Assembly: GCA_051294905.1 (NCBI GenBank)
Contig: CM119371.1
Location: forward strand, 8,434,001 to 8,498,000
Length of the DNA: 64,000 nt
DNA from: Botryllus schlosseri
Lineage: Eukaryota
Direction of reading: 5' to 3'
The notes beneath the pieces are model-generated. The model had not been told where the DNA came from. It worked only from the letters and a program-made list of their open reading frames with translations, and did no database searches. Shown piece after piece: positions 6,216 to 57,448 of this stretch (its first letter is position 1; every line of letters starts with the position of its first letter). A program made the position numbers and the translations under genes.

Positions 6216-7645
6216 TACGAATAGGTTTATAATTTGATTGTATTATTGTTTAATTGTAAATCAGGTCTCAATTTACATTTTAAATAGTTCATGGATGCAT
6301 GAATTGACAGTATTCTGCATTCCACGACGTTTTGAACGCTTCGAAGGTCTAAAAACTATCATATACTTGACAATACGGTGGTATGTGTATTGTGCTTTGT
6401 CGATATCTGCATTCATACTAATCCTCTGTGGCTTTATGATATATTTGAGTGGAATTACGCGATGGTCAATGCTTCTCAAATTTCAGAGTCTGCCTTCCAG
6501 TATTCCCGATGAGAACAACCGAAAGTTTTGTTTCGGCGCTATTCGTGGATTGTCGACCAACGACAAGATTACATTTCCCAACCACAGGAACAAAATAATG
6601 CCTGTTGTTTGAACCAACAAAATTAGTAAGCAAAAAGCAGCGCAGCAAAGCAAAGACCATTGCATGACATAGGCTCCGTTAGATGTCAGTTTCTAATTGT
6701 CCTAATGTATTCGTCTTTGTGCAGTAACATGCGTACAAATGAATTATTTTACTTCTTCATGAATAAACGATAATTTTTAAATAAACTTTTTCCTTTAAGT
6801 AGCGAGGTTTGACTACATTTTTTGCATATCAGATATCTTCATAACTGGTGCGTTGTTGTTACATCTGTTTCGTGTATATTCATGATGCAACGACACAGTG
6901 GTAACAGTGGGCAAAATCACCGTGTTATGCGTTTTGACAGTAATTTTAGTTGATATGAACATTATTTTTTACGATAATCACAATTTATGAACATTTTAAT
7001 GTATATCTGAGGTTGAAATTACTTCCGGTTCAGAGAATTCAATTTGTGATTATCAAATCTGCGATTTAACCGAGTTAAAATTTCTCGGGAGTAACTATAA
7101 ACGAGTTTTCCGTCCGCCATTATATGGAACCTGGTACATCCGTGAAATCACTGTCGATAACAACATGCAACTCAGCAGTTAGCAATGCAGTTTGGTATAG
7201 TTTACAATTCATACTGCCATGTCTGTGTGCGAAACCTGCGACTAATGTACGGCTAAGCCTATTTTGTGCTACTGATGACAGTACGTGTTCATTCTCTTCT
7301 AATAATTGATTTCAATCGCCGGATTGCAATGGAATCACATGTGTATTGCACTGGTTGCACTGCACCTCGTTTCTCCAACGGTGCTAGTAACATCGGTAGG
7401 CGCATGAAGGTTAACCCAAGATAACCTTTATATTTGAAGCAATTCGCTCTAGATCGGCATTACGTCGTTTTGGAGCAGATTGAGGACCGCAAAGCTGCAG
7501 CATTTGTATAGGTGCGATTCACGATACTTCATGGTTGTTGCAGGATTTATTTTATACCTTAAAACTAACATAAATATATTTACTGCGTCGTTTCTAAGGT
7601 GTCGTCCCGGAAATCTGTCTTCACCAAACGTTTAGAAGTATTGCG

Positions 7646-9312: not shown

Positions 9313-10939
9313 TTACACGTCTTTGATGCGTTTGATCGTAGCACTATCTAGATCACACAGTTCAAAAGATAAAATACCGCCAGAAAACGTTTTAGTTGTG
9401 CATTGTGAGAACGTGTTGTTGGTGGATTTCATCACAATGTCAGATATTTTCAACAGCGTGTCGAGGCTGCTAACCCGAGACAACCTTTCCTGCAACCATC
9501 GCAAATTAAAATAGAACTCCTTCGGAACATGTGGCAGCGCTGACGCTGGCAGGACATCAATTTCCACCGATGCACATTCTTCTTCATCTTGCTTCGGCGG
9601 TGCTTTGCGTATCCTCGAATCTGTTCCATACCTTTTCTTTATATGATCAGCTATCTTTATATCTTCCGACATGGACTTGATGTTTGTTCCGAATTTAGAT
9701 CTTTGCAAAACTGACTTATGCAATTTGACTTTTAAGCAGCGGAACTCCTCTGTGGTGGGTGTAGGCCGTGTGTCAGGCAATCGTGTGCCCGAATCAAGAT
9801 TCGCCTTTGTTTCATTTCTACTTTTGGTACTCGTGAAGATTGATTTCTTCTGCGTTCCGCGAACATATGTTTCGAAGCCGTGTCCGCTAGACTCGGCCCA
9901 TCTGTTCTTGTCGACTGCTGGGTCCACACCCTTGGCGGTTACCGGCTTCCGCGTAGTATTGCGAGACGGCGAAAGTTTCCTCTTTCTTGGGTCCTTTTTG
10001 GGGCTTGAAACGTTACGCTGCTTCAAATCTAAATCATAATTTATCATTTTATGCTCTTCGCCCTTCAATTCGCACTTGACAGTTGATCTGGATTTAGTTC
10101 TTCGCAGTGTGGACTTGTGCAATTTCATTTCTAGGCTGCGGAACTTGTCAGGTGCAGGTGCAGGTTTATCATGCGTTATTAACATCCATCGGCCCGAATT
10201 AGGTGTCTCCTGGTTTTCATTCTTACCTCTAGTACTTTCGGAAGTCAAATTATTTTGCGTTCCGCGGATACATTTTTCCAAACAGTGGTAGACTGCGGTA
10301 GACTAGTGGTAGACTGCGGTAGACTTGGCCAAACTTTTCTTGTCGACAGCCACCGCTTCTTTGACGCCAACAGGCTTCAACGCAGTATGGCGAGACGTTC
10401 TGCCTTTTCTTGGTTGATTTTCAATACAATTTAGTACAGAATTATGTGTAGTTCCAGATGCCAATATTTTCAAAGTCGATTCTGCGCGCTGTGAAAGGTT
10501 GAGAAGTTTCTTCGCAGTCGTTTTCGACTGTGCCTTCCCTTTCGTATCCGTTCGGGTGTACTTTCTAACGTCGACCCTTTCTCGTTCTGATATTTGCTTG
10601 CCAGAGACGCCGAACATTTCCGTTTTTTCTTCTTAACTGGTGCTTCATCATTTTGAGTAAGCTATTTTAACATATTTGCTCGAAATGGTGATAATTTTCT
10701 TTTCCGCGTCACATTCAATTTTAAATTATCTTCAGTCCAGCGAAGTACTGACTCGATCAATTCGTGAATCGCTCCCTTAGGTCTGTGGGCGATGCGCACT
10801 TTTGGCCGATGAGCAGCGACTACGACACCTTCCATACTGCTTCCTGTGTGTACGATTCGCAACGTCCAGCTCGACAACTTTTTAATAAATGCGAGCATAT
10901 CGTTACCATTCCCAGAAGACAACTCTACATTGTCTACAA
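9313..10939 (-). pseudogene. Disrupted intronless gene with basic repeated blocks and a C-terminal AF9/ENL ANC1-homology (AHD)-like domain
   Basis: C-terminus LRWLQERLSRV...LLKISDIV...LSFELCDLDSATIKRIKD resembles AF9/ENL AHD (FDFDLCSLDKTTVRKLQ). ORFs 10303-10617 and 9313-10281 are in frame across one TAG. There is a further break near 10620-10662 and a hAT insertion at 10940. Confidence 0.6.
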
Positions 10940-13570: not shown

Positions 13571-14949
13571 AGTTATCAAACATGTCCGTCTGGCGAAGCT
13601 GTTGGCTAACAGCTCGAAGGAATGGAAAGATTTGGTTTATCGTATGACGACGTGGAAACACGTACAATGCACGTGTGAATCAATCCTTCACTAACTAAGG
13701 ATGGTGTGAACCTCTGAAAGGTTCAGGTTCGTGTGAACGCGAACGTGATCTTCATGACGTCACGTTACGTCATATTACTAATTCCAACCAACATTTCAGT
13801 GAAGTGATAGCCTATATTAATGTACAGATTGTACTCGATACCTATAGCGACGACTCGGCGGGCGATATAATGCCGCAATGCTGAAGTACATATTGGCGTT
13901 TTGAACGTCGCCAAATGTATCAACTGGGGAAATCAAATAATGTAATAGTCCCATAGAATCAATATCTTCCGTCGCTTTGCCAACAATTTCACGAGGAGTT
14001 GCATGGGAGTTTAATCTTACGCCTTAACGGTCCACGCCAGACCGGACTATGTATTCGGCGTCTGAGTATTGCTACGTTGATATTGAGCAGAGAGTATAAA
14101 GCGGTTTCTATACTCGCCACCGATTTTACCCCGCCAAGTAGGCCTAATACAGTAGTAGCCGACACCCCAATCGCACGGATTTGGTTTTTATGATACAAAC
14201 ACATATTACATCAACATTGACCACGTACGCCTGCTAGGTTTTTAACGTCAGACAGCGATAAAAATTCCATTGAGTGATTGAATAGACATCATACGCTGAC
14301 TACATGTCCTACATTCTCAACGAAAGATGTTATAATTAAGGTAAAATTGTTAAATATGAAAAAGGTTTACAGTGCAGAACCTAACAAGGTTCGTTTGTGA
14401 ACGCGAACCTCTAAATTTCTGAGGTTGACACACAGAACGCGAACGTGAACCTCACGTTCACACGATCCCTCGTATCAACCTCTATCTGCTGTCAAAGGAC
14501 GAAACAAAAACGAGTCAGGAAATAGAGGACAATCTATTGACTCAAGTACCGCCCATGATATTCATCTGGTCAATTTTGTTTTCGCTACATGTCCCGTACG
14601 AATAGTATCTCGAGGTCAAAGGCATTCAAGCATCTTTCAAAGAGAGGTACCTCGTTCTCGTGGCCGGACAAGGAGTGTTCGTTACGAGCATGGCTGTTTT
14701 CGTTCATTTCACAGTGGTCTTTAAATTCCAGGGAGCTATATTTCATTGCGCTATGTGGTTGTTTCGCTATATTTTCCTGGAATGCTGGATGGGCGAAGAT
14801 TGTGATAATTTTTTATGCAGGTTTAAATCGAGGAATGGTGGGTTTACAGTGGCGACTTATTTCATCATTATGCTTTTTTGCCGTGAAAATGTTGCATCAC
14901 AGTTGTACTAAGATTAGATGTTTTCTTCCTCCATCAACTGGTGGTTGTT
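13571..14949 (+). pseudogene. Degenerate duplicate of the XK-related gene, split by an insertion
   Basis: 13571-13692 matches ~7850-7972 and 14471-14949 matches ~7977-8445 at DNA level, with frameshifting indels. Confidence 0.9.
13696..14470. mobile_element. MITE with GTGAAC/GTTCAC subterminal repeats inserted in the XKR pseudogene
   Basis: Imperfect TIR AGGATGGTGTGAAC / GTTCACACGATCCCT, and the XKR homology resumes directly after it. An inverted copy of its right end starts at ~14949. Confidence 0.75.
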
Positions 14950-16434
14950 AGGAACGGTGTGAACGTGAGGTTCACGTTTGCGTTCTGTGTATGAACCCAA
15001 TAAATTTAGAGGTTCACGTTCACAAACGAACCTTGGTAGGTTCTGCACTGTGAACCTTTTTCAAATATTACAATTTTGACTTTATTACAACATCTTTGGT
15101 TGGAATTTATTGAATTTTAACTGCGGGCCACTCTTTGCAAGCATATAAAAATAACACTAAACGATCATGCACCTTGACAATCTAAAACCTATAACTTGCT
15201 TTGTTACAAAGGTTTTCTCGAATATTAAGCGAGCTCGACCGGCAATCACACAACATCAAGACTTATCACCATGTTGTTGGCTCAGCAGGTATTTGCACAT
15301 TTATCAGATAAAGGACATGGGACGCATATGATTATTGTAGTAAAGCTTTTCACGGACAAATTTGATAGCTTTATACTCCTCTTTTATCTTGGTAGAATGA
15401 CCAAGCAGTACAGGAAGAATACATTTCCGTTGTTCGAGAAGTATATTGTTTAGGCTTGGAAAACTACTCTTTTGACAAACAAGATCTCGCATCAAGTCAT
15501 TTTTATACTGATTGAATAAGTGAGGACGACATGAGGTTTATTTTCAGACAATTATCAGATGGTGCACAGTATACACGCAAAGTCTACTATTTACTTTCTA
15601 CCATGTGAAATATTAAGAGGTCAATAAAGAAATTTGTTTTTATGGGTATACGTATCTCCTAAATTAGAGTAAATATAACAAAACCAGTATGATATTCATA
15701 ATCGCCAACCTTGAATACCCTCGAAAGACTCCTAGATGTTTTGACAATTTGTTTTCTTCTTTTTGTTGAACAGTGTAAAGATCGCATTAAACGCACGACA
15801 GTTCCACATACGGGTTGCTTTTTCTGCAGGGGCGAGCAACAAACGGTCCGCGACGGGATTTTGAGCGGCCCGCAGAGAGTTTCCCGGCTTACATGATAAT
15901 GTCGCCAACCTCCACAGTCTGATGCTGCAATCCCTCACTACTGGCTTATCAAATCACATGAAATTATAGTGACTTCTTCCAAGTTATTTCGTAGTTCTTT
16001 GTTTTCGTTGTGGTATGCGTTTATGCGTCACTGAATGAATCCGTGATTGCCTAGCTGACAACGATTGTCATGAAAGACTTGTTCTCCTTCGGTCTTCATA
16101 CATTTGCGAGAAAACATATTGGACCATCAACATGAATAAAATAACGCTGCTTTTCAATATAACTGATTTTTACGGCTTTCTACGTCCGTTTAAAGAACTT
16201 GTGGACAACTTTTATCGACAACAGATGTCTCCTTAGACGTCAAGAGCTGATGAAGTAGGCCGACATTACGTTAATAAATTCATTGAATACTATTTTTGAT
16301 CTCAATGCTTTAAACCTAAAATTTACATTGCATGCCATAAGACCCTTGTATACGTTCTAGATTAGCAATTAATGTATCTATTCAGTAATCCGGCCCGCTA
16401 TTGCAAAGTATCTCGATATCAAACGATTCAACAT

Positions 16435-24040: not shown

Positions 24041-24826
24041 CAGAGGTGGGCAAACTTTTTAGTTCGCGTGCCGCATTCAACATTTGAATCCATTCGCGGG
24101 CCGCACTATGTAAAATTCGGATACGAAGCCAAAATTCAATATGATTATTTGATTATATATTGATTAAAGACATCAAAATAATATATATGTATTTGTATAA
24201 TTAAAACAAACCAAACATTGATTTGATGATAACATACACACGTAGGAAATATTGACGAGAATTTAGAACCTGGTCATCGTAGTTGATAAAATTACGGGTG
24301 TGTCCCGTTTCTTGTACAATTTGAATGTAAATTTTAGTCTGTAAGCAGCGATCTGTTCATATATATGCTATTGTACTTTTGGTAACTCCAGGACACAATG
24401 CTGACAGCATAATAACCATGTTACCTTTCAATGCTATCCAACACACTCGCGAATCGGTTCTTTCAAGTACAGCACTAAAAGTAAGAAACTTGCTCGTGTT
24501 GCCAATCTAAAATTACACTCGTGATCCAAATTTAGTCATATGCGTTTCAATTTCTGTGATGCTTAGTAATTGAAACCTTTCAAAATGTATGGATCTCGAG
24601 GTCGGGCTATCGCACCATCAATGAAATAAAAGAAACACCATGGTAATAATATAACTTATCATTATCCTATTAAAATATATTAGGAAAAAAGTTCAATCAA
24701 GTAGGCCTATAGCCACATTAATTTGATTGTTAGTACCCATTTTATCAATGTTTTTACGCTTCCTGAATCTTACGAGAACCGCACAAAACGGTGTTATTAT
24801 TGCCGGTTGTCGTTTGCCCACCCCTG
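24041..24826. mobile_element. hAT (Charlie-type) MITE
   Basis: Ends CAGAGGTGGGCAAAC / GTTTGCCCACCCCTG; TSD TGCTAACG / TGCTAACT (7/8). Confidence 0.85.
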
Positions 24827-24899
24827 TGCTAACTGAAGACTGTATTAATCGGGATCATAAGTAGTATATAGGATCGGTCGCGAACTAACGTTTTTTTGC

Positions 24900-25420
24900 A
24901 TGGGTTCTTATGGGCCCGCTCGCACATCGTATTGAAAACTCGTGTTGGCATATCGTACTTTTAGACCCCCCCTATCGCTCGCACATCGTAATGTGTTCTT
25001 ATGGGTGCGCTCGCACATCGTACTTTCAAGTATAGGCTGCGGCGGTGACTCGTATTGAAAACTCGTGTTGGCATATCGTACTTTCGGGTGTAGGCATCTC
25101 TCGCACATCGTACTTTCGCATGTCGTACTTTCGCGTATAGGCTGTGTTGGTGATTCGCTATGTGTTCTTATGGTCGCGTCGGCATATCGTACTTTCGGGT
25201 ATTGGCATCTCTCGCACGTCGTACTTTCGCATGTCGTGCTTTCGCGTATAGGTTGTGTTGGTGATTCGCTATGTGTTCTTATGGGTGCGGTCGTGAATCG
25301 CCCTTTCGGGTATAGGCATCTCTCGCATGTCGTACTTTCGCGTATAGGCTGTGGTGGTGATTCGCCATGTGTTCTTATGGGCGCGGTCGTGATTCGTACT
25401 TTCAGGTATCTCTCGCGTGG
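24900..25420. repeat. Subterminal modular repeat array (left arm)
   Basis: Shuffled modules CGTACTTTCG, TCGCACAT/TCGCATGT, ATGTGTTCTTATGG and GTATAGGCTG. Confidence 0.9.
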
Positions 25421-25863
25421 TGTTGAATATGTACGAGTCGCCAACAATAACCGCGCAAACGGAAACGTGGCTTGCAAGAGGATTAAGCAGTGCGACCTAT
25501 ATTTCGAATGACCTGCGCGCTGAATTATTTCTCGTCCAGCCGCTACTATCGATTATTACACTAGACCGGTCAGTGTGAAATAGTTTGATCGTAAATTATG
25601 ATATATGACGTCGTAGTTTAGTCGTGTCAAATGACCGATCGTGTTCTCTTTCCTCGCTATTGATTGCTACCTGAATAATACTTTCGGCTTATTCGCTGTT
25701 TCGCGCCTACAGAATAGTCTGCTGTTCATAGTCACAGATTCATCGCGATAGCACAATTTTCACACCTCGATCAGTAGAACAACACCACACTAACGCAGTT
25801 GGCGAATCACATAGGTCATACATTTTACGCGAAATATTGTATTGTGGTATACAAATATGCAAA

Positions 25864-26500
25864 CTATTCTTTCAATTCAACAAGTCTAGTTAACGAATCG
25901 ATTTTCAAGCTGCCGACACAGTTTTTAACACGAGTGAGTTGATATTTCTTCCCGGGTACGAGCGAGGCTTTGTTCCATTGATCCAAAACCACCTCACCAG
26001 TATCATCCTTCAATGTAAAACTGTATAATTTCAACTCCTTTCCGGCCCCAGAATTGACCATCTTCTCCTCTCGAGAAACACAAGTAGCGGCGATCGAAAC
26101 GTATTCATCTTTATTCCCGTATACCGATTCGCAGGTCAATAATGGGTATTCTTCAGTCGTATGTCTCGATTTTCCATGCGTGGTTACTGACGAAGCCCGT
26201 CCCAGTAATACAGCAGGTTTTCCAGTAAACTTGTCAATTTGGACCCAACCGGATTTGACCATGAGTTTTTTTTCGTTTGGCGAATGCTTTCTCAATGTTC
26301 CCGAACAATTCACGATTGAAACACGTGAAAGATATCTCTTCGTTATTACCGTCGATGAATATACCTTTGAGATATTGGCTAACGCCACCTCTTTTGGGTG
26401 ATGAGACGAATTTGACGCCGACGTGAAAATTTGAAGTTGCTCCGACTTGCATAGTGTTGACGCTGTTCGATGTCATATCGTTTGATAAAGTGGGAGTCAT
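25864..26500 (-). pseudogene. Tandem OB-fold (RPA1/SSB-like) gene, left-arm copy, with a +1 frameshift
   Basis: Mirror image of 36521-37157; T8 run at 26266-26273. Confidence 0.7.
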
Positions 26501-29500
26501 CAGTGTAACTCACTACACAAATCAAGTTGAATCGTATTTGAATGTATTGATTCGACCCAACTCAAATCCTTTGACAAATCCTATTAACGCGATCTGTTGA
26601 ATCGAACGTAACCTGAATATTACTGACGCCAACATTCACCCGCATCGGATCATTCACACATTCCACGTCGGTGTTTTAACACTTATAGAATCAATACCAA
26701 CTATCTCTAACCCGATAATATTCAATCATTTTGGTAATTTGCCAACTTTAAATCCATTCGCGGGATGTACTAAAGGTAAATCCAAATAATCCAGAATGAA
26801 ATATTTGGACTTTGACATTGCGTGAATTGAAATAGGTTTGACAAACATGACTACCAACTTTCACCCAGTCACATTTTAAGATTATACTTTGAAACAATCC
26901 TTGAAACTGACAACTCTATTCACGACTCCGTTCCCGTTTGTAAAATAGAGTTTCAGAAATACTATCACTATGACAACTCAACATTTTAACATCTCGCCAT
27001 GCACAAACGAGTAAAATACAAAAACCTTGGTAAGTCAATCCGTTTGTAGTAACTCACCAAACCAAAACAAAAAGTGTCCGTATGAAAAGTAGACAAGACT
27101 ACGCGAGTAATCACTACAACCCACAAACATACCAACTCAGTTGTATCCATATCCCATCTTTTTTATTCAACTGTAAGATGAAGTAATTACTACTTGGCGC
27201 GCGGTTTGAGATTAACACATTACATTTGAGTATACGAGATTTGAATGTCTGACCAACGTAGTTGAGAATTCTTACAATCGAACGATGGTGTTATATTCAA
27301 AGTTATCATGCTGTGAACATAAGGATTGACGCATTGATTTGACATATGAGATTTGTAATAGTTGATCATTACTTGATTATTAAATTATGACATTATTAGA
27401 CCAGGGTTGTGTTGAAGGTTATTACGATACCAACAAACTTTTCAGAAACATTGTTATTAACATATCGATTTGTAAAACTAGATTAACGTGTCTGAAATGT
27501 TTTGATTGGGAAGATTAAGCCGTGTTCGTAAAAACCACGCAGCGTATTGTGGAAATCAGGAAATAATTTACAAATGTAATTGTCTCCAGTAACCAAGACT
27601 AAAGATGAAACAACAATTTTCTTTGTTGAACAATAACCGGTACAATACTTTATCGTCGTAATCAGCAGTGAGAATTGAAACACTTTCGCACATTATCCGG
27701 CGTCAAGATATCACACTAGGTGAATTGACATATCGCCGCTTGAATAATACCTAATCCGTTCGAACCATTTCACATACTTTGATCATTACAAAAGTAAATT
27801 GTGATATGTTTGTTAGATGCATTCAATTCAGTTAGAAGTGTCTAGTGCCCAACACTCGTAATATCAAAAAAGTACTTGCTACACTGTTATTTGCTAAACG
27901 TGTTTTGCATTGTTGTTCATTTGTAGTATTGATTGAAATTGTTCTTGAACCCTCAAATAATAATTCCCGACATGAAACCAAGCCGCTGAAAGTCGTTACC
28001 ATCACGAAGATACAATGTGCACGATGTTTGTCAAATGTGTCCTACCTGGCCAACAGAAAACAATTTTCACTCACTCGAAATGAAACCAATGTGATGGTCT
28101 CCATTCGATATTTTGTTTGTGTCAAATACTTTGCAATGAACACATTTGCGTGGTTGAGCTTTACATCATCTAGCTGTTATTTGTAAATCAAGATTTCGGT
28201 AAACTTGTAAATGTATCGTTTAACTAACCGACATTTAGTGATTGGGAAACATACCAGACGATACACATCCATCTCCGAAATACTTCATTGATCTTAATTT
28301 CCATCATCGTGATAATCGAAGTACATTTCTTTCGAATTCGTAACAACCGACTATGACATGATAAATTTTTGACAAGTTATGCTTAGAAGATTGGTTGCAT
28401 ATCGCGAAAAATAATATACCACTCATATTGATGCTGTTACTCCATTGATCGATATTTTCAAACGAGTAAAATTTATTACTTGAGTTTCTCCGCTTAATGT
28501 AAATGTAAACTCAGCCGTCTTTTAACATCAGAAAGACATTGATAAAAAGTAGGCAATCAAACGCTACAAGTTTAACTTTTGTAGGTTGTGTATGATTACC
28601 CCGCGCAACTCATTTCTCACCAAAGGTATATGAAATATATTCATGGTACACGAAAATACTCGATATTCTCTACGAACCTGTACAATGATTGGTGACGCTT
28701 TCAAACTGTTTCGATACCTCAAGACCTTTATTGTCTGAATGGTTGGTCATGTATCTTGATAATCGAGTAGTTCAACACACAACTAGTATTAACAGAAACA
28801 CCAGAGTTGCTTACACAAAAGTTTGTAAGTGCACAGTATGCGAATACCATGTGTAAGTCCAGCACAATTGGGGTATCCATCCGAGTTTAGTTAACACAAT
28901 TTACGACACCAAGGTCACCTCATCTTTCGTAAGACAACAAACCAACCAAGGCTTCAGGATATGTCCATGTCATAGCAATAAATCAGCTACTCCAACAACG
29001 GAATACATATGCTTACATCTTACACACAAATCAATCTACTTTGCTAACGAAAAGTGCCGAGCCATCACATGGTTGTCCTCACAACAATACAACTAAAACA
29101 TACTATCATACAAAATGGCTGTTATAGTCACCAACGGTACATCGTACAAGTAACAAGTCTCGAGAATCCAGTTACTCAAAAAACGTGAAAGTATTTTTAC
29201 ACCAAGTCGTTATGTTGACGAACGCGTATATTGTAATATCATGATCGATTTGCATTCGTTGGCTGCAAAAATGTCACTACTCTAAATAATTATATCTCAC
29301 TCAAAAGCATACTTGTCACCATTCGTTTTCATCAAGCACGAGTTCAAGAAACTTACTACGACATGAATTGTTATTTTTATGTTGTGTAAATAGTTAATAA
29401 TTAATTTTAGTAACACTATATCAACATCACGGAGTTGTGCGAATAGATTTACACGTAGTCTTGTGGTTTTAATCGAAGCACACAGCGTGTTCTAATGTAG

Positions 29501-29719
29501 AGTCATCTCTATTGTACAACAACTCGGTAATCGAAATGTATTAACATTTAAACAGCGATCCTGTTTCGTCACGCAAAAAATATCTTTACTGTCGCAACAC
29601 TCTGATACTCTGCACAAGATGTGTAAATCCTTTTCACACTCATAATAATACACTAACGGGATACCGACGTCAAGCAACAACGTTTACCAACATCACTGAC
29701 ACTGAACATACGATACCTA

Positions 29720-30330
29720 CCCAAGTAAAAATATCATTTTCACCACCAGGTCAGCCGTTACCTGTGTACAATTACCATTTGCCCTTGGGGGTCTAGCGTT
29801 ACCCGAGTAACAAATCCTTTTTCACTTGGAAATATATTTTTTCTCTGGGTAACAAACGTTTTTCACTTGGAAATATATTTTTTCCCTGGGTAACAATCCT
29901 TTTTCACTTGGAAATATATTTTTTCCCAGAGTAAGAAACCATTTTCACTTGTAAATATATTTTTTCCCCGGGTAACAAACCTTTTTCACTTGGAAATATA
30001 TTTTTTTCCCTGAGCAGCAAACCTTTTTCACTTGGAAATATATTTTTCCCAGAGTAAGAAACCATTTTCACTTGGAAATATATTTTTTTCCCTGAGCAAC
30101 AAACAATTTTCACGCGGAAATATAGTTTTTCCCCGGGTAACAAACCTTTTTCGCTTGGAAAGATATTTTTCCCTGAGCAACAAACCATTTTCACTCGGTG
30201 GTCCGTCGTTTACCTGAGTAAAAATATCATTTTCCTCTGGAGATCTGGCGTTTACCCAGTGTAACAACACATTTTCTCTTGGTCATCTAGCTTTTCCTAG
30301 AGTAACAAAACCATTTTCATTTTGAAATCT
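29720..30330. repeat. ~38-40-bp minisatellite (left arm)
   Basis: Unit approximately TTTTCACTTGGAAATATATTTTTTCCCNGRGTAACAAACC; about ten good copies plus degenerate flanking copies. Confidence 0.92.
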
Positions 30331-32690
30331 GACAAACACACCTGACAATTTGATATTTTTGTATATTGTTACAACGGATAGCGACAAAATATACACCAAC
30401 AACAACTCCAATACATTTGTGTAATCGCATATTCACTTGTGCTGATGCAACCCATCAAAATCATCGGTTACCCACATGCAATGTGTTGTTGTACATCGAC
30501 GTTTATGTTTTTGGAAAATTGGACAATAGGCTTCGATAGTTCTGTGATGTCCGGGTTCGTGCTTTGGATTTTCCAGAGTCAAAATGTCTGAATAAAACAC
30601 CTCCTTGACGATGGTTGGTATGTGGATAACGGTTGGATTTATGTCACCCATCGCGATAACAACTCCAGGTCGAGTTTTCCCCCGCGTGTTTACTATATTG
30701 TGTCTTTATTGGTCATGTATGTCTCGACATTCAGTTTGAAATCGGAAACCCTGATAAAGTATGTAACCGGATCCGGATATCAACTCTGAATCGATAAACC
30801 AATGAACAATATTCAAAGTAAACATGTTACACCCTGTGTTTCCACGAAAAAATACCATCCAGACATACGTCGCGCTTGTTTGCCCACATCAGTATACGCA
30901 TAAATGGAGGTGTGTGACATTGCATGCAATGTGTTGGTATACAAACATCGATCCACAGACATTATCATAGCCGGTAGTTTTGATGTAGATCGAATGTCAT
31001 CACACCCGATAACAATGTCATACCAATAAGCCACATTGCAATGACTCTGAGTCAATCTGAAGCAGGACATACAGACACCGTTCACTGATTTACTCGATGG
31101 CTTTATCGCGTTGTAACATTACAAGATAGTCATGACCCTATCTGCAGACGGACCACCCAGACCAATTGGATACATCGGTCAATATTCATCGTGTTGTCGA
31201 CACCGAAGTTTTCTGCTGAGACTACAGCGTTTGATCCAGGTGAATTATCGAAGTACGGTGCTCGAAATGATTGCGATCAGTCTTTCAGTCACGATGCATG
31301 GATGTCGCTACTCCCACATAACGACTCCAGATAAATATCGTGAGCAGTGATTCTGCAAATCTTGGACTGATATTGTGATCCAATAAGGTGTGTTTCTGTG
31401 GAATCAAGACTGCAATCGTACACCACAATAGAACACTACCTCGCGATTTCACACACAATCATAAAACACATCGTCGTAAGGGTCCAGTTCGTCTGGCAAC
31501 ATTTCGAAACGGTCGTCGCCACAAGAGATTGGTATCATTTTGAAACGACATCGTCACAAGTCTATTGACGTCGATTCTGTTGGTCATGTCAATCCGTTTC
31601 ACAATCCACCGTTTTTCAACTCCCCGCACCATAGTGTTACGACACAGACAAGAAGCGTCGGTGGAAATAATAAAACACGGAAAGCACACTTTGGTGTTAT
31701 TTGACATGGATTTTACACCCGACGAACCTTACATTCGAGCGATGCATTGGAATGACGCTTGTATTATTGACGTAGAAGGAACAGAAATGTATCGATTTAT
31801 TGGTTTCGTACATATCCAACTAAAACCAGGGTATATGATTGTGCATGGTTCGCATATTCGACTGTGAACGCCCAATTGGTATATGTTGTACAGTTCACTT
31901 TCACCGTCGTGCGAATAACCCATGTTAGGGTTCCATGTTTGTGTGTCTGTATGTCATGCTTCAGATTGACTCAGAGTCATTGCAATGTGGCTTATTGGTA
32001 TGACATTGTTATCGGGTGTGATGACATTCGATCTACATCAAAACTACCGGCTATGATAATGTCTGTGGATCGATGTTTGTATACCAACACATTGCATGCA
32101 ATGTCACACACCTCCATTTATGCGTATACTGATGTGGGCAAACAAGCGCGACGTATGTCTGGATGGTATTTTTTCGTGGAAACACAGGGTGTAACATGTT
32201 TACTTTGAATATTGTTCATTGGTTTATCGATTCAGAGTTGATATCCGGATCCGGTTACATACTTTATCAGGGTTTCCGATTTCAAACTGAATGTCGAGAC
32301 ATACATGACCAATAAAGACACAATATAGTAAACACGCGGGGGAAAACTCGACCTGGAGTTGTTATCGCGATGGGTGACATAAATCCAACCGTTATCCACA
32401 TACCAACCATCGTCAAGGAGGTGTTTTATTCAGACATTTTGACTCTGGAAAATCCAAAGCACGAACCCGGACATCACAGAACTATCGAAGCCTATTGTCC
32501 AATTTTCCAAAAACATAAACGTCGATGTACAACAACACATTGCATGTGGGTAACCGATGATTTTGATGGGTTGCATCAGCACAAGTGAATATGCGATTAC
32601 ACAAATGTATTGGAGTTGTTGTTGGTGTATATTTTGTCGCTATCCGTTGTAACAATATACAAAAATATCAAATTGTCAGGTGTGTTTGTC

Positions 32691-33301
32691 AGATTTCAAA
32701 ATGAAAATGGTTTTGTTACTCTAGGAAAAGCTAGATGACCAAGAGAAAATGTGTTGTTACACTGGGTAAACGCCAGATCTCCAGAGGAAAATGATATTTT
32801 TACTCAGGTAAACGACGGACCACCGAGTGAAAATGGTTTGTTGCTCAGGGAAAAATATCTTTCCAAGCGAAAAAGGTTTGTTACCCGGGGAAAAACTATA
32901 TTTCCGCGTGAAAATTGTTTGTTGCTCAGGGAAAAAAATATATTTCCAAGTGAAAATGGTTTCTTACTCTGGGAAAAATATATTTCCAAGTGAAAAAGGT
33001 TTGCTGCTCAGGGAAAAAAATATATTTCCAAGTGAAAAAGGTTTGTTACCCGGGGAAAAAATATATTTACAAGTGAAAATGGTTTCTTACTCTGGGAAAA
33101 AATATATTTCCAAGTGAAAAAGGATTGTTACCCAGGGAAAAAATATATTTCCAAGTGAAAAACGTTTGTTACCCAGAGAAAAAATATATTTCCAAGTGAA
33201 AAAGGATTTGTTACTCGGGTAACGCTAGACCCCCAAGGGCAAATGGTAATTGTACACAGGTAACGGCTGACCTGGTGGTGAAAATGATATTTTTACTTGG
33301 G
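32691..33301. repeat. ~38-40-bp minisatellite (right arm)
   Basis: Mirror of 29720-30330 (repeats of GGAAAAAATATATTTCCAAGTGAAAA). Confidence 0.92.
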
Positions 33302-36300
33302 TAGGTATCGTATGTTCAGTGTCAGTGATGTTGGTAAACGTTGTTGCTTGACGTCGGTATCCCGTTAGTGTATTATTATGAGTGTGAAAAGGATTTACAC
33401 ATCTTGTGCAGAGTATCAGAGTGTTGCGACAGTAAAGATATTTTTTGCGTGACGAAACAGGATCGCTGTTTAAATGTTAATACATTTCGATTACCGAGTT
33501 GTTGTACAATAGAGATGACTCTACATTAGAACACGCTGTGTGCTTCGATTAAAACCACAAGACTACGTGTAAATCTATTCGCACAACTCCGTGATGTTGA
33601 TATAGTGTTACTAAAATTAATTATTAACTATTTACACAACATAAAAATAACAATTCATGTCGTAGTAAGTTTCTTGAACTCGTGCTTGATGAAAACGAAT
33701 GGTGACAAGTATGCTTTTGAGTGAGATATAATTATTTAGAGTAGTGACATTTTTGCAGCCAACGAATGCAAATCGATCATGATATTACAATATACGCGTT
33801 CGTCAACATAACGACTTGGTGTAAAAATACTTTCACGTTTTTTGAGTAACTGGATTCTCGAGACTTGTTACTTGTACGATGTACCGTTGGTGACTATAAC
33901 AGCCATTTTGTATGATAGTATGTTTTAGTTGTATTGTTGTGAGGACAACCATGTGATGGCTCGGCACTTTTCGTTAGCAAAGTAGATTGATTTGTGTGTA
34001 AGATGTAAGCATATGTATTCCGTTGTTGGAGTAGCTGATTTATTGCTATGACATGGACATATCCTGAAGCCTTGGTTGGTTTGTTGTCTTACGAAAGATG
34101 AGGTGACCTTGGTGTCGTAAATTGTGTTAACTAAACTCGGATGGATACCCCAATTGTGCTGGACTTACACATGGTATTCGCATACTGTGCACTTACAAAC
34201 TTTTGTGTAAGCAACTCTGGTGTTTCTGTTAATACTAGTTGTGTGTTGAACTACTCGATTATCAAGATACATGACCAACCATTCAGACAATAAAGGTCTT
34301 GAGGTATCGAAACAGTTTGAAAGCGTCACCAATCATTGTACAGGTTCGTAGAGAATATCGAGTATTTTCGTGTACCATGAATATATTTCATATACCTTTG
34401 GTGAGAAATGAGTTGCGCGGGGTAATCATACACAACCTACAAAAGTTAAACTTGTAGCGTTTGATTGCCTACTTTTTATCAATGTCTTTCTGATGTTAAA
34501 AGACGGCTGAGTTTACATTTACATTAAGCGGAGAAACTCAAGTAATAAATTTTACTCGTTTGAAAATATCGATCAATGGAGTAACAGCATCAATATGAGT
34601 GGTATATTATTTTTCGCGATATGCAACCAATCTTCTAAGCATAACTTGTCAAAAATTTATCATGTCATAGTCGGTTGTTACGAATTCGAAAGAAATGTAC
34701 TTCGATTATCACGATGATGGAAATTAAGATCAATGAAGTATTTCGGAGATGGATGTGTATCGTCTGGTATGTTTCCCAATCACTAAATGTCGGTTAGTTA
34801 AACGATACATTTACAAGTTTACCGAAATCTTGATTTACAAATAACAGCTAGATGATGTAAAGCTCAACCACGCAAATGTGTTCATTGCAAAGTATTTGAC
34901 ACAAACAAAATATCGAATGGAGACCATCACATTGGTTTCATTTCGAGTGAGTGAAAATTGTTTTCTGTTGGCCAGGTAGGACACATTTGACAAACATCGT
35001 GCACATTGTATCTTCGTGATGGTAACGACTTTCAGCGGCTTGGTTTCATGTCGGGAATTATTATTTGAGGGTTCAAGAACAATTTCAATCAATACTACAA
35101 ATGAACAACAATGCAAAACACGTTTAGCAAATAACAGTGTAGCAAGTACTTTTTTGATATTACGAGTGTTGGGCACTAGACACTTCTAACTGAATTGAAT
35201 GCATCTAACAAACATATCACAATTTACTTTTGTAATGATCAAAGTATGTGAAATGGTTCGAACGGATTAGGTATTATTCAAGCGGCGATATGTCAATTCA
35301 CCTAGTGTGATATCTTGACGCCGGATAATGTGCGAAAGTGTTTCAATTCTCACTGCTGATTACGACGATAAAGTATTGTACCGGTTATTGTTCAACAAAG
35401 AAAATTGTTGTTTCATCTTTAGTCTTGGTTACTGGAGACAATTACATTTGTAAATTATTTCCTGATTTCCACAATACGCTGCGTGGTTTTTACGAACACG
35501 GCTTAATCTTCCCAATCAAAACATTTCAGACACGTTAATCTAGTTTTACAAATCGATATGTTAATAACAATGTTTCTGAAAAGTTTGTTGGTATCGTAAT
35601 AACCTTCAACACAACCCTGGTCTAATAATGTCATAATTTAATAATCAAGTAATGATCAACTATTACAAATCTCATATGTCAAATCAATGCGTCAATCCTT
35701 ATGTTCACAGCATGATAACTTTGAATATAACACCATCGTTCGATTGTAAGAATTCTCAACTACGTTGGTCAGACATTCAAATCTCGTATACTCAAATGTA
35801 ATGTGTTAATCTCAAACCGCGCGCCAAGTAGTAATTACTTCATCTTACAGTTGAATAAAAAAGATGGGATATGGATACAACTGAGTTGGTATGTTTGTGG
35901 GTTGTAGTGATTACTCGCGTAGTCTTGTCTACTTTTCATACGGACACTTTTTGTTTTGGTTTGGTGAGTTACTACAAACGGATTGACTTACCAAGGTTTT
36001 TGTATTTTACTCGTTTGTGCATGGCGAGATGTTAAAATGTTGAGTTGTCATAGTGATAGTATTTCTGAAACTCTATTTTACAAACGGGAACGGAGTCGTG
36101 AATAGAGTTGTCAGTTTCAAGGATTGTTTCAAAGTATAATCTTAAAATGTGACTGGGTGAAAGTTGGTAGTCATGTTTGTCAAACCTATTTCAATTCACG
36201 CAATGTCAAAGTCCAAATATTTCATTCTGGATTATTTGGATTTACCTTTAGTACATCCCGCGAATGGATTTAAAGTTGGCAAATTACCAAAATGATTGAA

Positions 36301-36520
36301 TATTATCGGGTTAGAGATAGTTGGTATTGATTCTATAAGTGTTAAAACACCGACGTGGAATGTGTGAATGATCCGATGCGGGTGAATGTTGGCGTCAGTA
36401 ATATTCAGGTTACGTTCGATTCAACAGATCGCGTTAATAGGATTTGTCAAAGGATTTGAGTTGGGTCGAATCAATACATTCAAATACGATTCAACTTGAT
36501 TTGTGTAGTGAGTTACACTG

Positions 36521-37157
36521 ATGACTCCCACTTTATCAAACGATATGACATCGAACAGCGTCAACACTATGCAAGTCGGAGCAACTTCAAATTTTCACGT
36601 CGGCGTCAAATTCGTCTCATCACCCAAAAGAGGTGGCGTTAGCCAATATCTCAAAGGTATATTCATCGACGGTAATAACGAAGAGATATCTTTCACGTGT
36701 TTCAATCGTGAATTGTTCGGGAACATTGAGAAAGCATTCGCCAAACGAAAAAAAACTCATGGTCAAATCCGGTTGGGTCCAAATTGACAAGTTTACTGGA
36801 AAACCTGCTGTATTACTGGGACGGGCTTCGTCAGTAACCACGCATGGAAAATCGAGACATACGACTGAAGAATACCCATTATTGACCTGCGAATCGGTAT
36901 ACGGGAATAAAGATGAATACGTTTCGATCGCCGCTACTTGTGTTTCTCGAGAGGAGAAGATGGTCAATTCTGGGGCCGGAAAGGAGTTGAAATTATACAG
37001 TTTTACATTGAAGGATGATACTGGTGAGGTGGTTTTGGATCAATGGAACAAAGCCTCGCTCGTACCCGGGAAGAAATATCAACTCACTCGTGTTAAAAAC
37101 TGTGTCGGCAGCTTGAAAATCGATTCGTTAACTAGACTTGTTGAATTGAAAGAATAG
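36521..37157 (+). pseudogene. Tandem OB-fold (RPA1 DBD-A/B or SSB-like) gene, ~211 aa if one A is removed from the A8 run at 36748-36755
   Basis: Domain 1: IFIDGNNEEISFTCFNRE...MVKSGWVQIDK (compare RPA1 LVDESGEIRATAFNEQ...YFSKGTLKIANK). Domain 2: FTLKDDTGEVVLDQWN...PGKKYQLT (OB-fold DxTGxIxLxxW motif). Two overlapping ORFs join at the A-run. Confidence 0.7.
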
Positions 37158-37600
37158 TTTGCATATTTGTATACCACAATACAATATTTCGCGTAAAATG
37201 TATGACCTATGTGATTCGCCAACTGCGTTAGTGTGGTGTTGTTCTACTGATCGAGGTGTGAAAATTGTGCTATCGCGATGAATCTGTGACTATGAACAGC
37301 AGACTATTCTGTAGGCGCGAAACAGCGAATAAGCCGAAAGTATTATTCAGGTAGCAATCAATAGCGAGGAAAGAGAACACGATCGGTCATTTGACACGAC
37401 TAAACTACGACGTCATATATCATAATTTACGATCAAACTATTTCACACTGACCGGTCTAGTGTAATAATCGATAGTAGCGGCTGGACGAGAAATAATTCA
37501 GCGCGCAGGTCATTCGAAATATAGGTCGCACTGCTTAATCCTCTTGCAAGCCACGTTTCCGTTTGCGCGGTTATTGTTGGCGACTCGTACATATTCAACA

Positions 37601-38121
37601 CCACGCGAGAGATACCTGAAAGTACGAATCACGACCGCGCCCATAAGAACACATGGCGAATCACCACCACAGCCTATACGCGAAAGTACGACATGCGAGA
37701 GATGCCTATACCCGAAAGGGCGATTCACGACCGCACCCATAAGAACACATAGCGAATCACCAACACAACCTATACGCGAAAGCACGACATGCGAAAGTAC
37801 GACGTGCGAGAGATGCCAATACCCGAAAGTACGATATGCCGACGCGACCATAAGAACACATAGCGAATCACCAACACAGCCTATACGCGAAAGTACGACA
37901 TGCGAAAGTACGATGTGCGAGAGATGCCTACACCCGAAAGTACGATATGCCAACACGAGTTTTCAATACGAGTCACCGCCGCAGCCTATACTTGAAAGTA
38001 CGATGTGCGAGCGCACCCATAAGAACACATTACGATGTGCGAGCGATAGGGGGGGTCTAAAAGTACGATATGCCAACACGAGTTTTCAATACGATGTGCG
38101 AGCGGGCCCATAAGAACCCAT
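37601..38121. repeat. Subterminal modular repeat array (right arm)
   Basis: Repeated CGAAAGTACG, CATAAGAACACAT and ATGTGCGAG modules; mirror of the left arm. Confidence 0.9.
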
Positions 38122-38434
38122 GCAAAAAAACGTTAGTTCGCGACCGATCCTATATACTACTATCATATGGTGCTCATATCAAAAGCATTCAGAGATATCA
38201 CACGTATAAAGCTATATTATTGCGAGAGTGCCTTACTTGTATCTTACACCTTACTTACGGACAGTCACGCAATCAGTTCTTCCGAATCGGGATAATAGCA
38301 TCTGCGACAGAGAACACTGTAAACTGATATCATTTGGTTAACTTTTAGCCACTCAACCTCCAATTCTTCGACAGTAACAAAGTTGCGCTACAATACAGGC
38401 GGCAGTAATCTGTCTAACAGCCGGGAATGTGAAT

Positions 38435-56469: not shown

Positions 56470-57425
56470 AGTATGTATGTATAGGGGGTAGGGGGGTGCT
56501 TCTCGGCTAACTGGGGCCTTTTGCACCATGGCTGTTTCGTTCATCAATACAACTGTAAGTCTTTAGTGGACAATATAACAAAAGCTAACCGTGATTGTAC
56601 TGTGGGAGGACTTTTCAATAGCGAACTAAGCAGAAGTGGAATATTTTGTCGATGTGCGGATTGAATTAGATGGACCCTGGCGGCTCGATCGTAGCGATTG
56701 CATGAAGTAAGAAAATGCACAAACGTCTCTAGTTGATTACACGTGTCGCACAGTACAGTTTCATGAAGACCAAGTCTATACAGATGGGCGTTCAGTCGAC
56801 AATGCCCCGTTTGCATCCTAATGAGAATAGATGATTCTCTACGGGAAAGCCGCGGCATGTTCGTATGATCATCGATGCTTGAAAAAATTCGTCGAAATTG
56901 CGACTCAATGTCGATTTGAGTCCAGTGATTATCCAATTTGATTTTGCAGAATTCGTGGATCAGGGTTCTTGCTTCGTTCGTAGATATGTCCTGTTTTTCT
57001 ATGTTGTTTGGTAGATCGTTCGCTGCGTCTCGCGCCAGTTGATCAGCTCTCTCGTTGAAACCAACATTCTTGTGTCCAGGTATCCATACCATCGAAACTG
57101 CTTTCTTATTGAAGGCCAAGGCGTTTTTGCGTTCTTGTATATCAATGACGATGCTATCCGTTGTATTGGTCGTGTTAATTGCTGTCAGAGCGCTTTTGCT
57201 GTCTGAAAAACTCGTGATGTTAGAATTTGGCAAGCAATTTACCGTAACCCAGTCCAATGCTGCTCTTATTGCAATAAGCTCTATTGTAGTAGAATATTTA
57301 TTGAACTCGAAGACTTTTCGGGTGCGTCTCTCAGAACAAGAAAAATGGATATAGTAGCGTAGATATGATACACCTGCCTTTACAAATATATAATTGTTTC
57401 TTGTAATAACTGGCCCCGCAGGCAT
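56470..57425 (-). mobile_element. 5'-truncated non-LTR retrotransposon (I-group-like): RNase H, C-terminal CCHC finger and 3' tail
   Basis: ORF 56544-57425 contains ELIAI..AL, FSDSKSAL, WIPGH...NERADQLA (RNase H), then RMQTGH...C..C...ET..H....C. A short TACA-repeat tail lies at ~56470-56483. Confidence 0.9.
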
Positions 57426-57448
57426 AGTGAATAAACTAACCTCTCAGC

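Follow-up and report, generated by a model that had tools for sequence, protein, structure and literature searches.

Architecture of the element at the locus

The window, meaning the whole 64,000-nt stretch of Botryllus schlosseri DNA that was analysed, holds a 13302-nt element in which two long inverted arms surround a loop and a 6-bp TSD lies on either side. The features of the element are as follows.

24854–24859: TSD, left copy, ATCATA, matching 38162–38167
24860–31078, forward strand: left arm, 6219 nt, starting AGTAGTATATAGGATCGGTC (repeat search and direct arm comparison)
24920–25334, forward strand: subterminal block with seven copies of the 12-nt motif TCGCAYRTCGTA, overlapping 111/96-nt tandem repeats at 25063–25409
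25358–26502: arm segment, arm positions 499–1643, 92–94% identical to the gene-bearing element C1c
25864–26509, reverse strand: what remains of a 217-aa accessory ORF for a candidate OB-fold protein, lying in two frames (25864–26472 and 26234–26509) because of a frameshift
29774–30318: 41/42-nt tandem array of about 13 units in the inner arm, an array also present in the pPolB-bearing element C11a
31065: sole unpaired arm position, G (mirror position 31956)
31079–31942: asymmetric spacer (loop), 864 nt (repeat search)
31943–38161, reverse strand: right arm, 6219 nt, ending ...CCTATATACTACT (repeat search and end sequence)
36512–37157, forward strand: mirror copy of the frameshifted 217-aa ORF (frame 36549–37157, 202 aa, and arm symmetry)
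38162–38167: TSD, right copy, ATCATA (end sequence)

Direct comparison showed that the left and right arms are reverse complements at 6218/6219 positions. An earlier note on this DNA had described 6.2-kb arms making up about 93% of the element, and this is borne out: the inverted repeat of 2 × 6219 nt accounts for 93.5% of the length, the arms being nearly the whole molecule as in a snap-back genome. A chance origin of the inverted repeat is excluded. The termini read AGTAGTATATAGG... at the left and ...CCTATATACTACT at the right, giving the AGTAGT...ACTACT ends and the exact ATCATA on both flanks that the note had also reported. AG...CT ends are typical of the Polinton/Maverick family, and the trinucleotide reiteration at the AGTAGT... 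ends is of the kind used by protein-primed polymerases. Within the 64-kb window, the 12-nt motif is confined to 24920–25334 and the mirror block at 37687–38101. All 40 scored matches to the spacer cover its positions 1–864, and 39 of the 40 are copies elsewhere, 93–95% identical. Neither the arm nor the spacer has a match in Rfam or tRNA scans.

Short unitigs of a public run from the same organism, a run that is perhaps not independent of the assembly, contain both flank junctions of the window copy, which the note had wanted checked in sequencing data. One junction unitig spans 24830–24889, and a loose end at 24860 is the reverse complement of the right flank. The flank unitig of run X1 has a depth of 15.3, differs from the window by two SNPs and one indel, and ends exactly at 24859; the junction unitig of that run has a depth of 8. 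These observations hint at a heterozygous insertion in the window. Runs X16–X18 do not cover the unique flank at 24641–24835 and so do not bear on whether the insertion is present.

Gene content of the fold-backs

When the ORFs of at least 60 aa of a related autonomous element were used as tblastn queries, the window element gave no match to polymerase, ATPase, integrase or the capsid region, and a Pfam search of its 15 ORFs of at least 70 aa gave nothing credible. Ten fold-backs were compared, namely the window copy and nine others fetched for their resemblance to it. Both pPolB and the rve integrase are absent from 10/10, and none of the ten copies yielded a transposase ORF. The absence of core genes claimed at the outset therefore stands, but the element is not gene-free, as each arm carries a conserved 217-aa ORF. 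This ORF is broken by the frameshift in the window copy and is intact in both arms in 5/10 fold-backs. With a pN/pS of 0.09–0.36, its codons indicate that it is under purifying selection. A homologue search of 5.8 billion proteins returned a single match, at 96% identity. Language-model look-alikes at 0.94 offer a lead that it may be an OB-fold protein; a single-sequence AlphaFold model had a mean pLDDT of 34 and was left out of the fold search.

A propagating family of fold-backs

All ten fold-backs share the layout of the window copy. Their arms measure 2.2–15.4 kb, and each of the ten sits at a different target with a perfect 6-bp TSD; these are palindromic copies with different TSDs, of the sort that the earlier note had proposed to look for. 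Throughout the 495-Mb genome, the terminal pattern AGTAGTNNNNNNGATCGSTC occurs 1148 times in the forward and 1138 times in the reverse orientation, against 0 and 3 for the control. By arithmetic, about 1100 element equivalents (Polintons and derivatives) of about 14 kb each amount to about 3% of the genome. The window copy is one member of a family that propagates and numbers at least several hundred copies. Thus, of the defective or satellite genome first proposed, the derivation from Polintons is upheld, but what is present is a family rather than a single genome. Its near genome-scale length is also confirmed: 18 end pairs with the exact terminal 20-mer of the window copy span 12.1–19.7 kb (median about 14.0 kb), and among these an element of 14.1 kb and another of 14.8 kb carry pPolB. 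A 6.2-kb copy, C8s, was considered as an independent turn-around and rejected, as its "spacer" is collinear with the arm of other copies plus a reversed piece of inner arm; an internal deletion derivative is the better interpretation. A search of full-text papers found no published description of fold-back Polinton derivatives.

Polinton ends and available helpers

Ends of the form AGTAGT...GATCG[CG]TC are common to the fold-backs and to pPolB-encoding elements, and a perfect 6-bp TSD flanks 12/12 elements (the window copy, the nine other fold-backs, C1c and C11a), in agreement with the original assignment of the ends to Polintons. C1c is 20.9 kb long, with a TIR of 810 bp and the TSD TACATG. 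It encodes a pPolB (PF03175, 29.4 bits; cut-off 25.8) and an integrase (rve, 60.2 bits, and chromo, 36.5 bits). A 215-aa Walker-A ORF matches Pox_A32 weakly, its 17.7 bits lying under the 22.8-bit cut-off, and has no informative PDB sequence match. There were no Pfam matches for protease or capsid proteins in C1c, and its candidate protease had no PDB sequence match; the look-alike clusters of a 301-aa ORF include Preplasmiviricota viruses at 0.97, which we treat as a lead. The outer 1.1 kb of the window arm is 94% identical to the end of C1c, and C7 and C1c agree almost completely over their first 32 nt.

C11a (14,136 bp, TSD TGCGTC) has a 1219-aa pPolB ORF and the exact terminal 20-mer of the window copy, AGTAGTATATAGGATCGGTC. 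Its right 5 kb is collinear with window arm positions 1 to ~5600 at 78–91%. C11a could equally be a recombinant with its right end taken from a fold-back. The TIRs of C1c and C11a measure 0.8–1.3 kb. Neither element contains a counterpart of the spacer or of the innermost 0.6 kb of the arm, so the search did not find the parent of the family.

Helper functions are present in the genome. The polymerase pPolB has 46 genomic matches, with 34 of the 45 long ones free of stop codons, and the integrase has 113, of which 72 of the 77 best are open 359-aa frames with no stop codon. A helper integrase of the sort postulated earlier is therefore available, and Polintons are abundant in this genome and apparently young. 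A whole-genome scan with the PF03175 profile gave no match, though the polymerase is abundant by the other search; the profile is insensitive here.

Concerted evolution of the arms

The left and right arms of 6/6 elements differ by 0.00% in a non-coding block of 1.4 kb, while the elements differ from each other by 1.2–10.5%. Counted over whole arms, the differences per element are 0, 0, 0, 1, 3, 13, 15, ~12 and 64, and ~1.4% in the tenth. The arms evolve in concert, since they are near-identical within an element and 1–10% different between elements. Homogenisation is not continuous, because 2/10 elements, C12 among them, have arms that are at least 1% diverged. C12 contains an asymmetric block of 2–2.8 kb, and in C16 the 64 differences are distributed evenly over arms of 6.6 kb. 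Clustering of arm mismatches near the loop was considered and rejected, as the apparent cluster in the nested palindrome C2L (see below) comes from the 41-nt array, which differs in length by two units, and the mismatches of C16 are evenly spread. Between element C1b and the inner element of C2L, the 217-aa ORF has 0 synonymous differences and the adjacent non-coding block differs by 9.3%.

A nested palindrome

C2L, as assembled at C2:34453730–34485313, is a 31.6-kb element with the TSD CTTGTG and arms that are 99.9% identical. In the assembly, the left part of an outer element (O) is followed by an inner fold-back (I) and then by the mirror of the O-left part. I lies between AACATA and TATGTT, each the reverse complement of the other, and they form no direct repeat; the host flanks outside C2L show no mirror symmetry. 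In a few places the mirrored part deviates from a perfect mirror, and it is therefore a separate sequence. Among 40 scored of 2928 candidates, the O/I junction is found at full length only twice, both times in C2L, and no parent locus appeared. This arrangement suggests that, before integration, a free linear molecule underwent snap-back synthesis or else recombination between inverted arms. The central part of the outer element, "M," was considered as an independent 4-kb transposon and rejected, as locus L043 is a palindrome over its full 4.2 kb and forms the middle of a further fold-back.

Proposed origin and alternative explanations

We propose that the window element is probably a non-autonomous, almost wholly palindromic Polinton/Maverick derivative whose arms are re-synthesised by snap-back at a free linear stage. 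It keeps the Polinton termini, the subterminal repeated motifs and roughly the length of the genome, but none of the genes for polymerase, integrase, ATPase and capsid. Its replication, and the integration that gives the 6-bp duplication, would therefore depend on autonomous Polintons acting in trans. The family would pass through a free linear stage that keeps the arms identical: DNA synthesis would run from a terminus through arm and loop and turn back on the nascent or displaced strand, one arm thereby being re-synthesised from the other. A snap-back origin had already been suggested in the earlier note, and it draws support from the architecture, the collinearity of the arm with C11a and the nested palindrome elsewhere. 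We infer the turn itself, the polymerase that makes it, its frequency and the dependence on a helper. The nested palindrome C2L needs a fold-back or arm-exchange step before integration.

A bolder version of this proposal is possible, although we put it forward tentatively and rate it as less probable than not being so: the fold-backs may be a hyperparasitic satellite lineage of polintoviruses with an obligatory snap-back in the normal life cycle. If true, synthesis primed at a single terminus would return along its own product and end at the element's own terminus, regenerating two perfect arms in a self-terminating, excision-free copy-out transposition. In that case C2L would be the earliest fossil in sequence form of Polintons replicating as free linear DNA from their termini, and the narrow size range matching autonomous elements would mean that the satellites are packaged in Polinton capsids.

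The most likely alternative, though one that we hold to be clearly less probable than snap-back, is that two free linear molecules recombine homologously through their inverted arms, which would make the palindromes, C2L included, without any polymerase turning around. The product it predicts for C2L is the one observed, and modules do swap between elements, as the identical synonymous sites of the 217-aa ORF beside the diverged block in C1b and C2L illustrate. However, exchange shuffles arm differences and never erases them, leaving the 0.00% divergence unexplained, and two co-replicating copies are required. Arm recombination and snap-back are not told apart by sequence alone.

We consider it unlikely that in-chromosome gene conversion keeps the arms identical, the fold-back having arisen once and spread by ordinary non-autonomous transposition without snap-back. 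This would fit the identity of the arms in elements that differ from one another, as well as the inherited spacer boundaries evident from the full-length spacer matches. However, the evenly spread differences of C16 and the unhomogenised block of C12 show copies drifting apart in place, and gene conversion cannot make C2L, in which the O-left part, including its spacer, is mirrored around an inner element that has no direct TSD.

Less probable again is that the host keeps or exploits the copies as hairpin-RNA loci, whose transcription across the 6-kb inverted repeat would yield long dsRNA and small RNAs against Polintons sharing the outer 1.6 kb. Support for this comes from the structure and from the segment common to autonomous elements; on the other side, about a thousand dispersed copies with fresh TSDs resemble amplification of a parasite and not a domesticated locus, and Rfam gives no match. 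It is highly improbable that the element is a Foldback-type or other cut-and-paste DNA transposon resembling Polintons by TSD length only. Long inverted arms with internal tandem arrays and the lack of replication coding capacity would suit such an element, but the exact terminal 20-mer and subterminal sequence are common to pPolB-bearing elements, the outer 1.1 kb closely matches the end of C1c, which has both integrase and pPolB, and none of the ten copies encodes a transposase. An assembly fold-back artefact is hardly credible, for although perfect 6-kb inverted repeats are difficult to assemble and the flank is of another haplotype in one public run, ATCATA occurs at each end within unique, non-mirrored flanks, both junctions occur in unitigs, and 10/10 fold-backs share the layout with their own TSDs, alongside ~1140 ends per orientation.

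Comparison with known systems

The fold-backs resemble Polintons/Mavericks in their 6-bp TSD, in TIRs with 5'-AG...CT-3' ends, and in sharing the termini and subterminal sequence of pPolB/rve-chromo elements. They differ from them in lacking the pPolB, integrase, ATPase and capsid genes and, in the window copy, in being 93.5% inverted repeat. To our knowledge, the idea that Polintons self-replicate extrachromosomally by protein priming rests almost entirely on gene content. This genome contributes probable structural by-products of Polinton replication, namely the concerted palindromic derivatives and the nested palindrome. C2L, as assembled, must have arisen as a free molecule that had proper termini and was integrated afterwards, and the replication model thereby becomes testable in a natural system. 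The closest published report that we found describes butterfly Polintons with TIRs of ~2 kb that carry genes (bioRxiv 10.1101/2025.02.07.637071).

Drosophila Foldback (FB) and other long-TIR transposons likewise have very long inverted arms, tandem arrays and many non-coding copies. FB elements belong to cut-and-paste superfamilies with other TSD lengths. In contrast, the elements described here have Polinton ends, no FB-type ends or transposase were found in the copies, and the arms are mostly unique sequence rather than arrays. Perfect long inverted repeats are known hazards to genome stability, and the large class of them identified here consists of potential sources of double-stranded RNA.

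Streptomyces chromosomes and plasmids are linear replicons capped by terminal proteins, with giant inverted ends formed by arm exchange. Like the fold-backs, they have protein-primed ends, and internal inverted homology leads to one arm being replaced by a copy of the other; unlike them, they are bacterial and non-integrating and make no TSD. The rolling-hairpin dimer replicative forms of parvoviruses are also head-to-head palindromic duplexes copied around a hairpin. However, parvoviruses use Rep nicking and short terminal hairpins, whereas here there is an 864-nt unique loop and ends of the protein-primed type.

Early adenovirus work (1976) reportedly found incomplete particles with inverted duplications. 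Snap-back or copy-back defective viral genomes share with the fold-backs a near-full-length palindrome derived from one end, two identical origins, the absence of replication coding capacity and a presumed dependence on a helper; snap-back genomes are so defined in a 2026 review (PMC13506859). Those genomes are transient in infected cells and come mostly from RNA viruses, whereas the fold-backs are integrated in the germline with TSDs, heritable and present in high copy, with an 864-nt loop and a conserved accessory ORF. The concept of the defective-interfering, snap-back genome is thereby extended to a heritable, germline-amplified family.

Architecture of the window element

The element consists of two inverted arms around a short spacer, located with a repeat finder as follows.

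24854-24859 and 38162-38167: ATCATA, directly outside the two element ends
24860-31078: left arm, 6219 nt
31943-38161: right arm, 6219 nt
between the arms: spacer, 864 nt
25063-25409: 111/96-nt tandem repeats, subterminal in the arm
29774-30318: 41/42-nt tandem array inside the arm

Direct comparison paired the arms at 6218 of 6219 positions, the sole exception being 31065 (mirror position 31956), and the inverted repeat makes up 93.5% of the element's 13,302 nt. The element starts with AGTAGTATATAGG and ends with CCTATATACTACT. The exact arms, AGTAGT...ACTACT ends, and ATCATA on both flanks that the earlier note read from the sequence are therefore borne out. Each end has seven copies of a 12-nt motif, TCGCAYRTCGTA, within its outermost 470 nt, and the rest of the 64-kb window has none. 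Both element junctions are present in unitigs of a public run. In one public run, a unitig of the flank at 24602-24859, which carries two SNPs and lacks 1 nt compared with the window, stops exactly at the insertion point, with a depth of 15.3 versus 8 for the junction unitig. A heterozygous or polymorphic insertion is possible.

Three further features lie elsewhere in the window.

9313-10302 (-): 329-aa open frame, ANC1-homology (AHD) domain at 26.8 bits, just under the Pfam cut-off of 27; probably a host-gene exon
14318-15102: small inverted repeat, 153-nt arms, 87% complementary and 479 nt apart; may be a short non-autonomous transposon
56544-57443 (-): 299-aa open frame, RNase H domain at 36.4 bits; likely a retroelement remnant

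A genome-wide family of fold-back elements

We searched the 495.5-Mb assembly, in which the window is G000:C1:8434001-8498000. The terminal 500 nt of the element gave 55 matches among 40 scored of 1885 candidates, many in +/- pairs 13-18 kb apart. For the outer 2.6 kb of the arm there were matches at 19 further sites (93-96%), 18 of them forming nine +/- pairs ~10 kb apart. The spacer was full-length in 40/40 scored candidates (968 in all), 39 of them elsewhere in the genome at 93-95%. With the conserved end pattern AGTAGTNNNNNNGATCGSTC we counted 1148 forward and 1138 reverse sites; its reversed control gave 0 and 3, respectively. The exact terminal 20-mer of the element has 24 forward and 26 reverse sites, which form 18 pairs of 12.1-19.7 kb (median ~14.0 kb).

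We then compared the window copy with nine other fold-backs. The fold-back layout and a perfect 6-bp target-site duplication (TSD) were found in 10/10, although the nine were picked for resemblance to the window and give no estimate of the fold-back share among all elements. Every target differs (ATCATA, TTTATA, TTCGTC, GTCGTC, GACTTG, ACCGTT, TACAAC, CTCGAG, GATGAT, and CTTGTG), so the palindromic copies with other TSDs that the earlier note looked for exist. Arms are 2.2-15.4 kb and spacers 339-1847 nt long, and arm identity is 99.0-100% in 9/10; in the tenth, C12, it is 98.5-98.7%, with an asymmetric block. An assembly artefact, in which the mirrored arms would be a fold-back of the assembly, is excluded for the family by these individual TSDs and the genome-wide ends, and is very unlikely at the window locus because the matching TSD sits in non-mirrored flanks.

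Certain copies (e.g., G000:C1:2651067 and 2664946) open with AGTAGTAGT, which holds three AGT units, and most have two, so the terminal trinucleotide reiteration varies in number. At G000:C1:16768420-16810257, three end pairs from the end-pattern list (41.8, 28.7, and 14.6 kb) are nested with differing centres. They resemble the usual insertion of one family member into another, unlike the concentric copy C2L described below.

Gene content of the fold-backs

A tblastn search with all ORFs of at least 60 aa from C1c, a gene-bearing element described below, found no core genes in the ten fold-backs, in line with the earlier reading of the window element. The sole matches were terminal fragments and one 217-aa ORF. 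Scans of the window arm plus spacer returned no Rfam families and no tRNA genes. A hairpin-RNA locus is an unlikely rival reading, as the many dispersed copies with TSDs look more like amplification of a parasite.

The 217-aa ORF lies near the element end, is intact in both arms of 5/10 fold-backs, and is absent in 4/10; in the window copy it is frameshifted in the same way in both arms. In pairwise comparison of six intact copies, 14/15 pairs, which are non-independent, have a pN/pS of 0.09-0.36, and one has no synonymous difference. The ORF thus looks like a real gene under constraint. A protein database search found one near-identical homologue only, and a single-sequence structure model was unusable. 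Language-model look-alikes, taken as a lead only, fall in OB-fold/RPA-type clusters at 0.94; a candidate single-strand-binding role would fit strand-displacement replication. Between C1b, another fold-back, and the inner element of C2L, the ORF has 0 synonymous differences and the 1.4-kb non-coding block next to it shows 9.3% divergence, a contrast that indicates module exchange between family members.

Polymerase-bearing relatives

Element C1c (G000:C1:19020275-19041196, 20.9 kb, TSD TACATG) has the same kind of ends, with an 810-bp terminal inverted repeat (TIR), and its right end matches window arm positions 499-1643 at 92-94% identity. Its 1242-aa ORF, of which the first 1026 aa were searched with Pfam, matches PF03175 at 29.4 bits (cut-off 25.8). 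Pfam also identified an integrase of 359 aa with an rve domain (60.2 bits) and a chromodomain (36.5 bits), and a Walker-A ATPase gave a Pox_A32 match below threshold. An LTR-retroelement fragment (L040:3200-6408; RT, RNase H, and H2C2-rve integrase by Pfam) is nested in this autonomous copy. C1c is thus an older copy, with TIRs at 98% identity.

Element C11a (G000:C11:16027956-16042091, 14,136 bp, TSD TGCGTC) carries the window's exact terminal 20-mer, a 1344-bp TIR at 99.8% identity, and a 1219-aa polymerase (pPolB) ORF that shares 91% identity with the C1c polymerase. None of the C1c ORFs for the integrase, the ATPase, or the capsid region has a match in C11a. Over its right 5 kb, C11a aligns collinearly with the window arm at 78-91%, starting at the terminus, taking in the 41-nt array, and reaching ~position 5600. 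This ~5 kb of non-coding, arm-like sequence stands where those C1c ORFs would be. C11a is possibly a derivative that kept only the polymerase, or else the product of recombination of a Polinton with a fold-back.

Genome-wide, a search with the polymerase protein scored 45 of 411 candidates and found 46 matches; 34/45 long matches are free of stop codons. For the integrase, 113 of 1032 candidates were scored, with 113 matches; among the best 77 (96-100% identity, full length), 72 lack a stop codon. A large and apparently young population of potential helpers is therefore present. By sequence comparison, C1c, C11a, and these counts tie the fold-backs to Polintons. The earlier note had proposed Polinton-type ends and sought an autonomous Polinton sharing them; C1c and C11a carry such ends, and a direct 6-bp repeat flanks 12/12 elements (the ten fold-backs, C1c, and C11a). 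An unrelated transposon superfamily could own long inverted arms, yet these ends, TSDs, and partners are those of Polintons.

Concerted evolution of the arms

The left and right copies of a 1.4-kb non-coding block differ by 0.00% within 6/6 elements and by 1.2-10.5% between elements, so diverged lineages have kept their arms identical. Across whole arms, three elements have no differences, the window copy has 1, and another has 3, which are adjacent. Three further elements have 13, 15, and ~12. C16 has 64, spread evenly, and C12 differs by ~1.4%, plus a 2-2.8-kb block unlike between arms. In C12 (G000:C12:15473481-15489464), the arms match at 98.5-98.7% over the outer 776 nt and the inner 4.4 kb, and the blocks between these segments are unrelated, measuring 2.8 kb on one side and 2.0 kb on the other.

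In-situ gene conversion between arms would yield identical arms within each element, as seen in the 1.4-kb block, whereas single insertions (C16, C12) drift apart in place. Arms appear to be equalised at or near each propagation cycle; continuous conversion within the chromosome appears not to be the cause. LTR pairs show a similar pattern.

A nested palindrome

C2L (G000:C2:34453730-34485313, TSD CTTGTG) is, as assembled, a 31.6-kb palindrome with arms 99.9% identical save a two-unit difference in the 41-nt array. Its left part comprises the left arm, spacer, and first 1.47 kb of the right arm of O, an element of another fold-back subfamily. The middle is a complete window-type fold-back, I, of 13.8 kb with its own AGTAGT/ACTACT ends. 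The right part mirrors the O-part, so the O spacer is present twice in mirrored orientation. Intact O-type elements read ...GTAAACATA then TTTTTGGTG. In C2L, I directly follows AACATA and is followed by TATGTT, its reverse complement. The flanks of I are thus mirror images, in contrast to the direct 6-bp repeat in 12/12 other elements. At a few positions the mirrored O-part is not perfectly symmetrical; it is therefore a separate sequence, not a computational copy. The full-length O/I junction was found only in C2L among 40 scored of 2928 candidates, and no parent was found among them.

In the simplest history, I would have inserted into the right arm of O, and a free linear copy would have run from the O left terminus through the left arm and loop of I. 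The turn would have come from folding back of this copy or from arm exchange, inside I, between two such molecules; the palindrome, with the O-left terminus at both ends, would then have integrated as a unit. Recombination between inverted arms, a rival reading, could yield the same palindrome. The symmetry ends exactly at the outer termini, and the host flanks are non-mirrored with a normal TSD. Read from its assembled structure, C2L requires that a molecule with free Polinton termini underwent fold-back or arm exchange prior to being integrated.

Proposed mechanism

We propose that the fold-backs would be replicated from their termini by a helper polymerase. A displaced or nascent strand would snap back into a 6-kb hairpin, and synthesis turning round at the loop would regenerate perfect arms and stop precisely at the element's own terminus. 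A helper integrase would then insert the duplex. Adenovirus and phi29 use jumping-back or sliding-back initiation, and the AGT reiteration, of two or three units by copy, fits such initiation. Fold-backs with the window terminus (median ~14.0 kb) match the 14.1- and 14.8-kb polymerase-bearing elements with the same terminus, which agrees with the near genome-scale length claimed earlier and hints at a length constraint such as, speculatively, packaging. The first interpretation, a Polinton-derived snap-back element, is supported and extended by the ends, TSDs, partners, concerted arms, and C2L.

Comparison with known systems

The value lies less in the single window copy than in the family, C2L above all, for how Polintons replicate. 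We found no description of fold-back Polinton derivatives in the full-text literature searched; Repbase and subscription journals were outside this scope, and a prior description is possible. In the portion consulted, a giant-transposon review covers Polintons without mention of palindromic derivatives (PMC6431247), and excerpts on butterfly Polintons describe long gene-bearing TIRs of ~2 kb (bioRxiv 10.1101/2025.02.07.637071). By its ends, TSD, and partners, the window element belongs to the Polinton/Maverick group as a non-autonomous member, without the defining gene content, as for any non-autonomous derivative. Its architecture is like that of snap-back defective viral genomes, as defined in excerpts of a recent review (PMC13506859), from which it differs in being integrated, heritable, and amplified.
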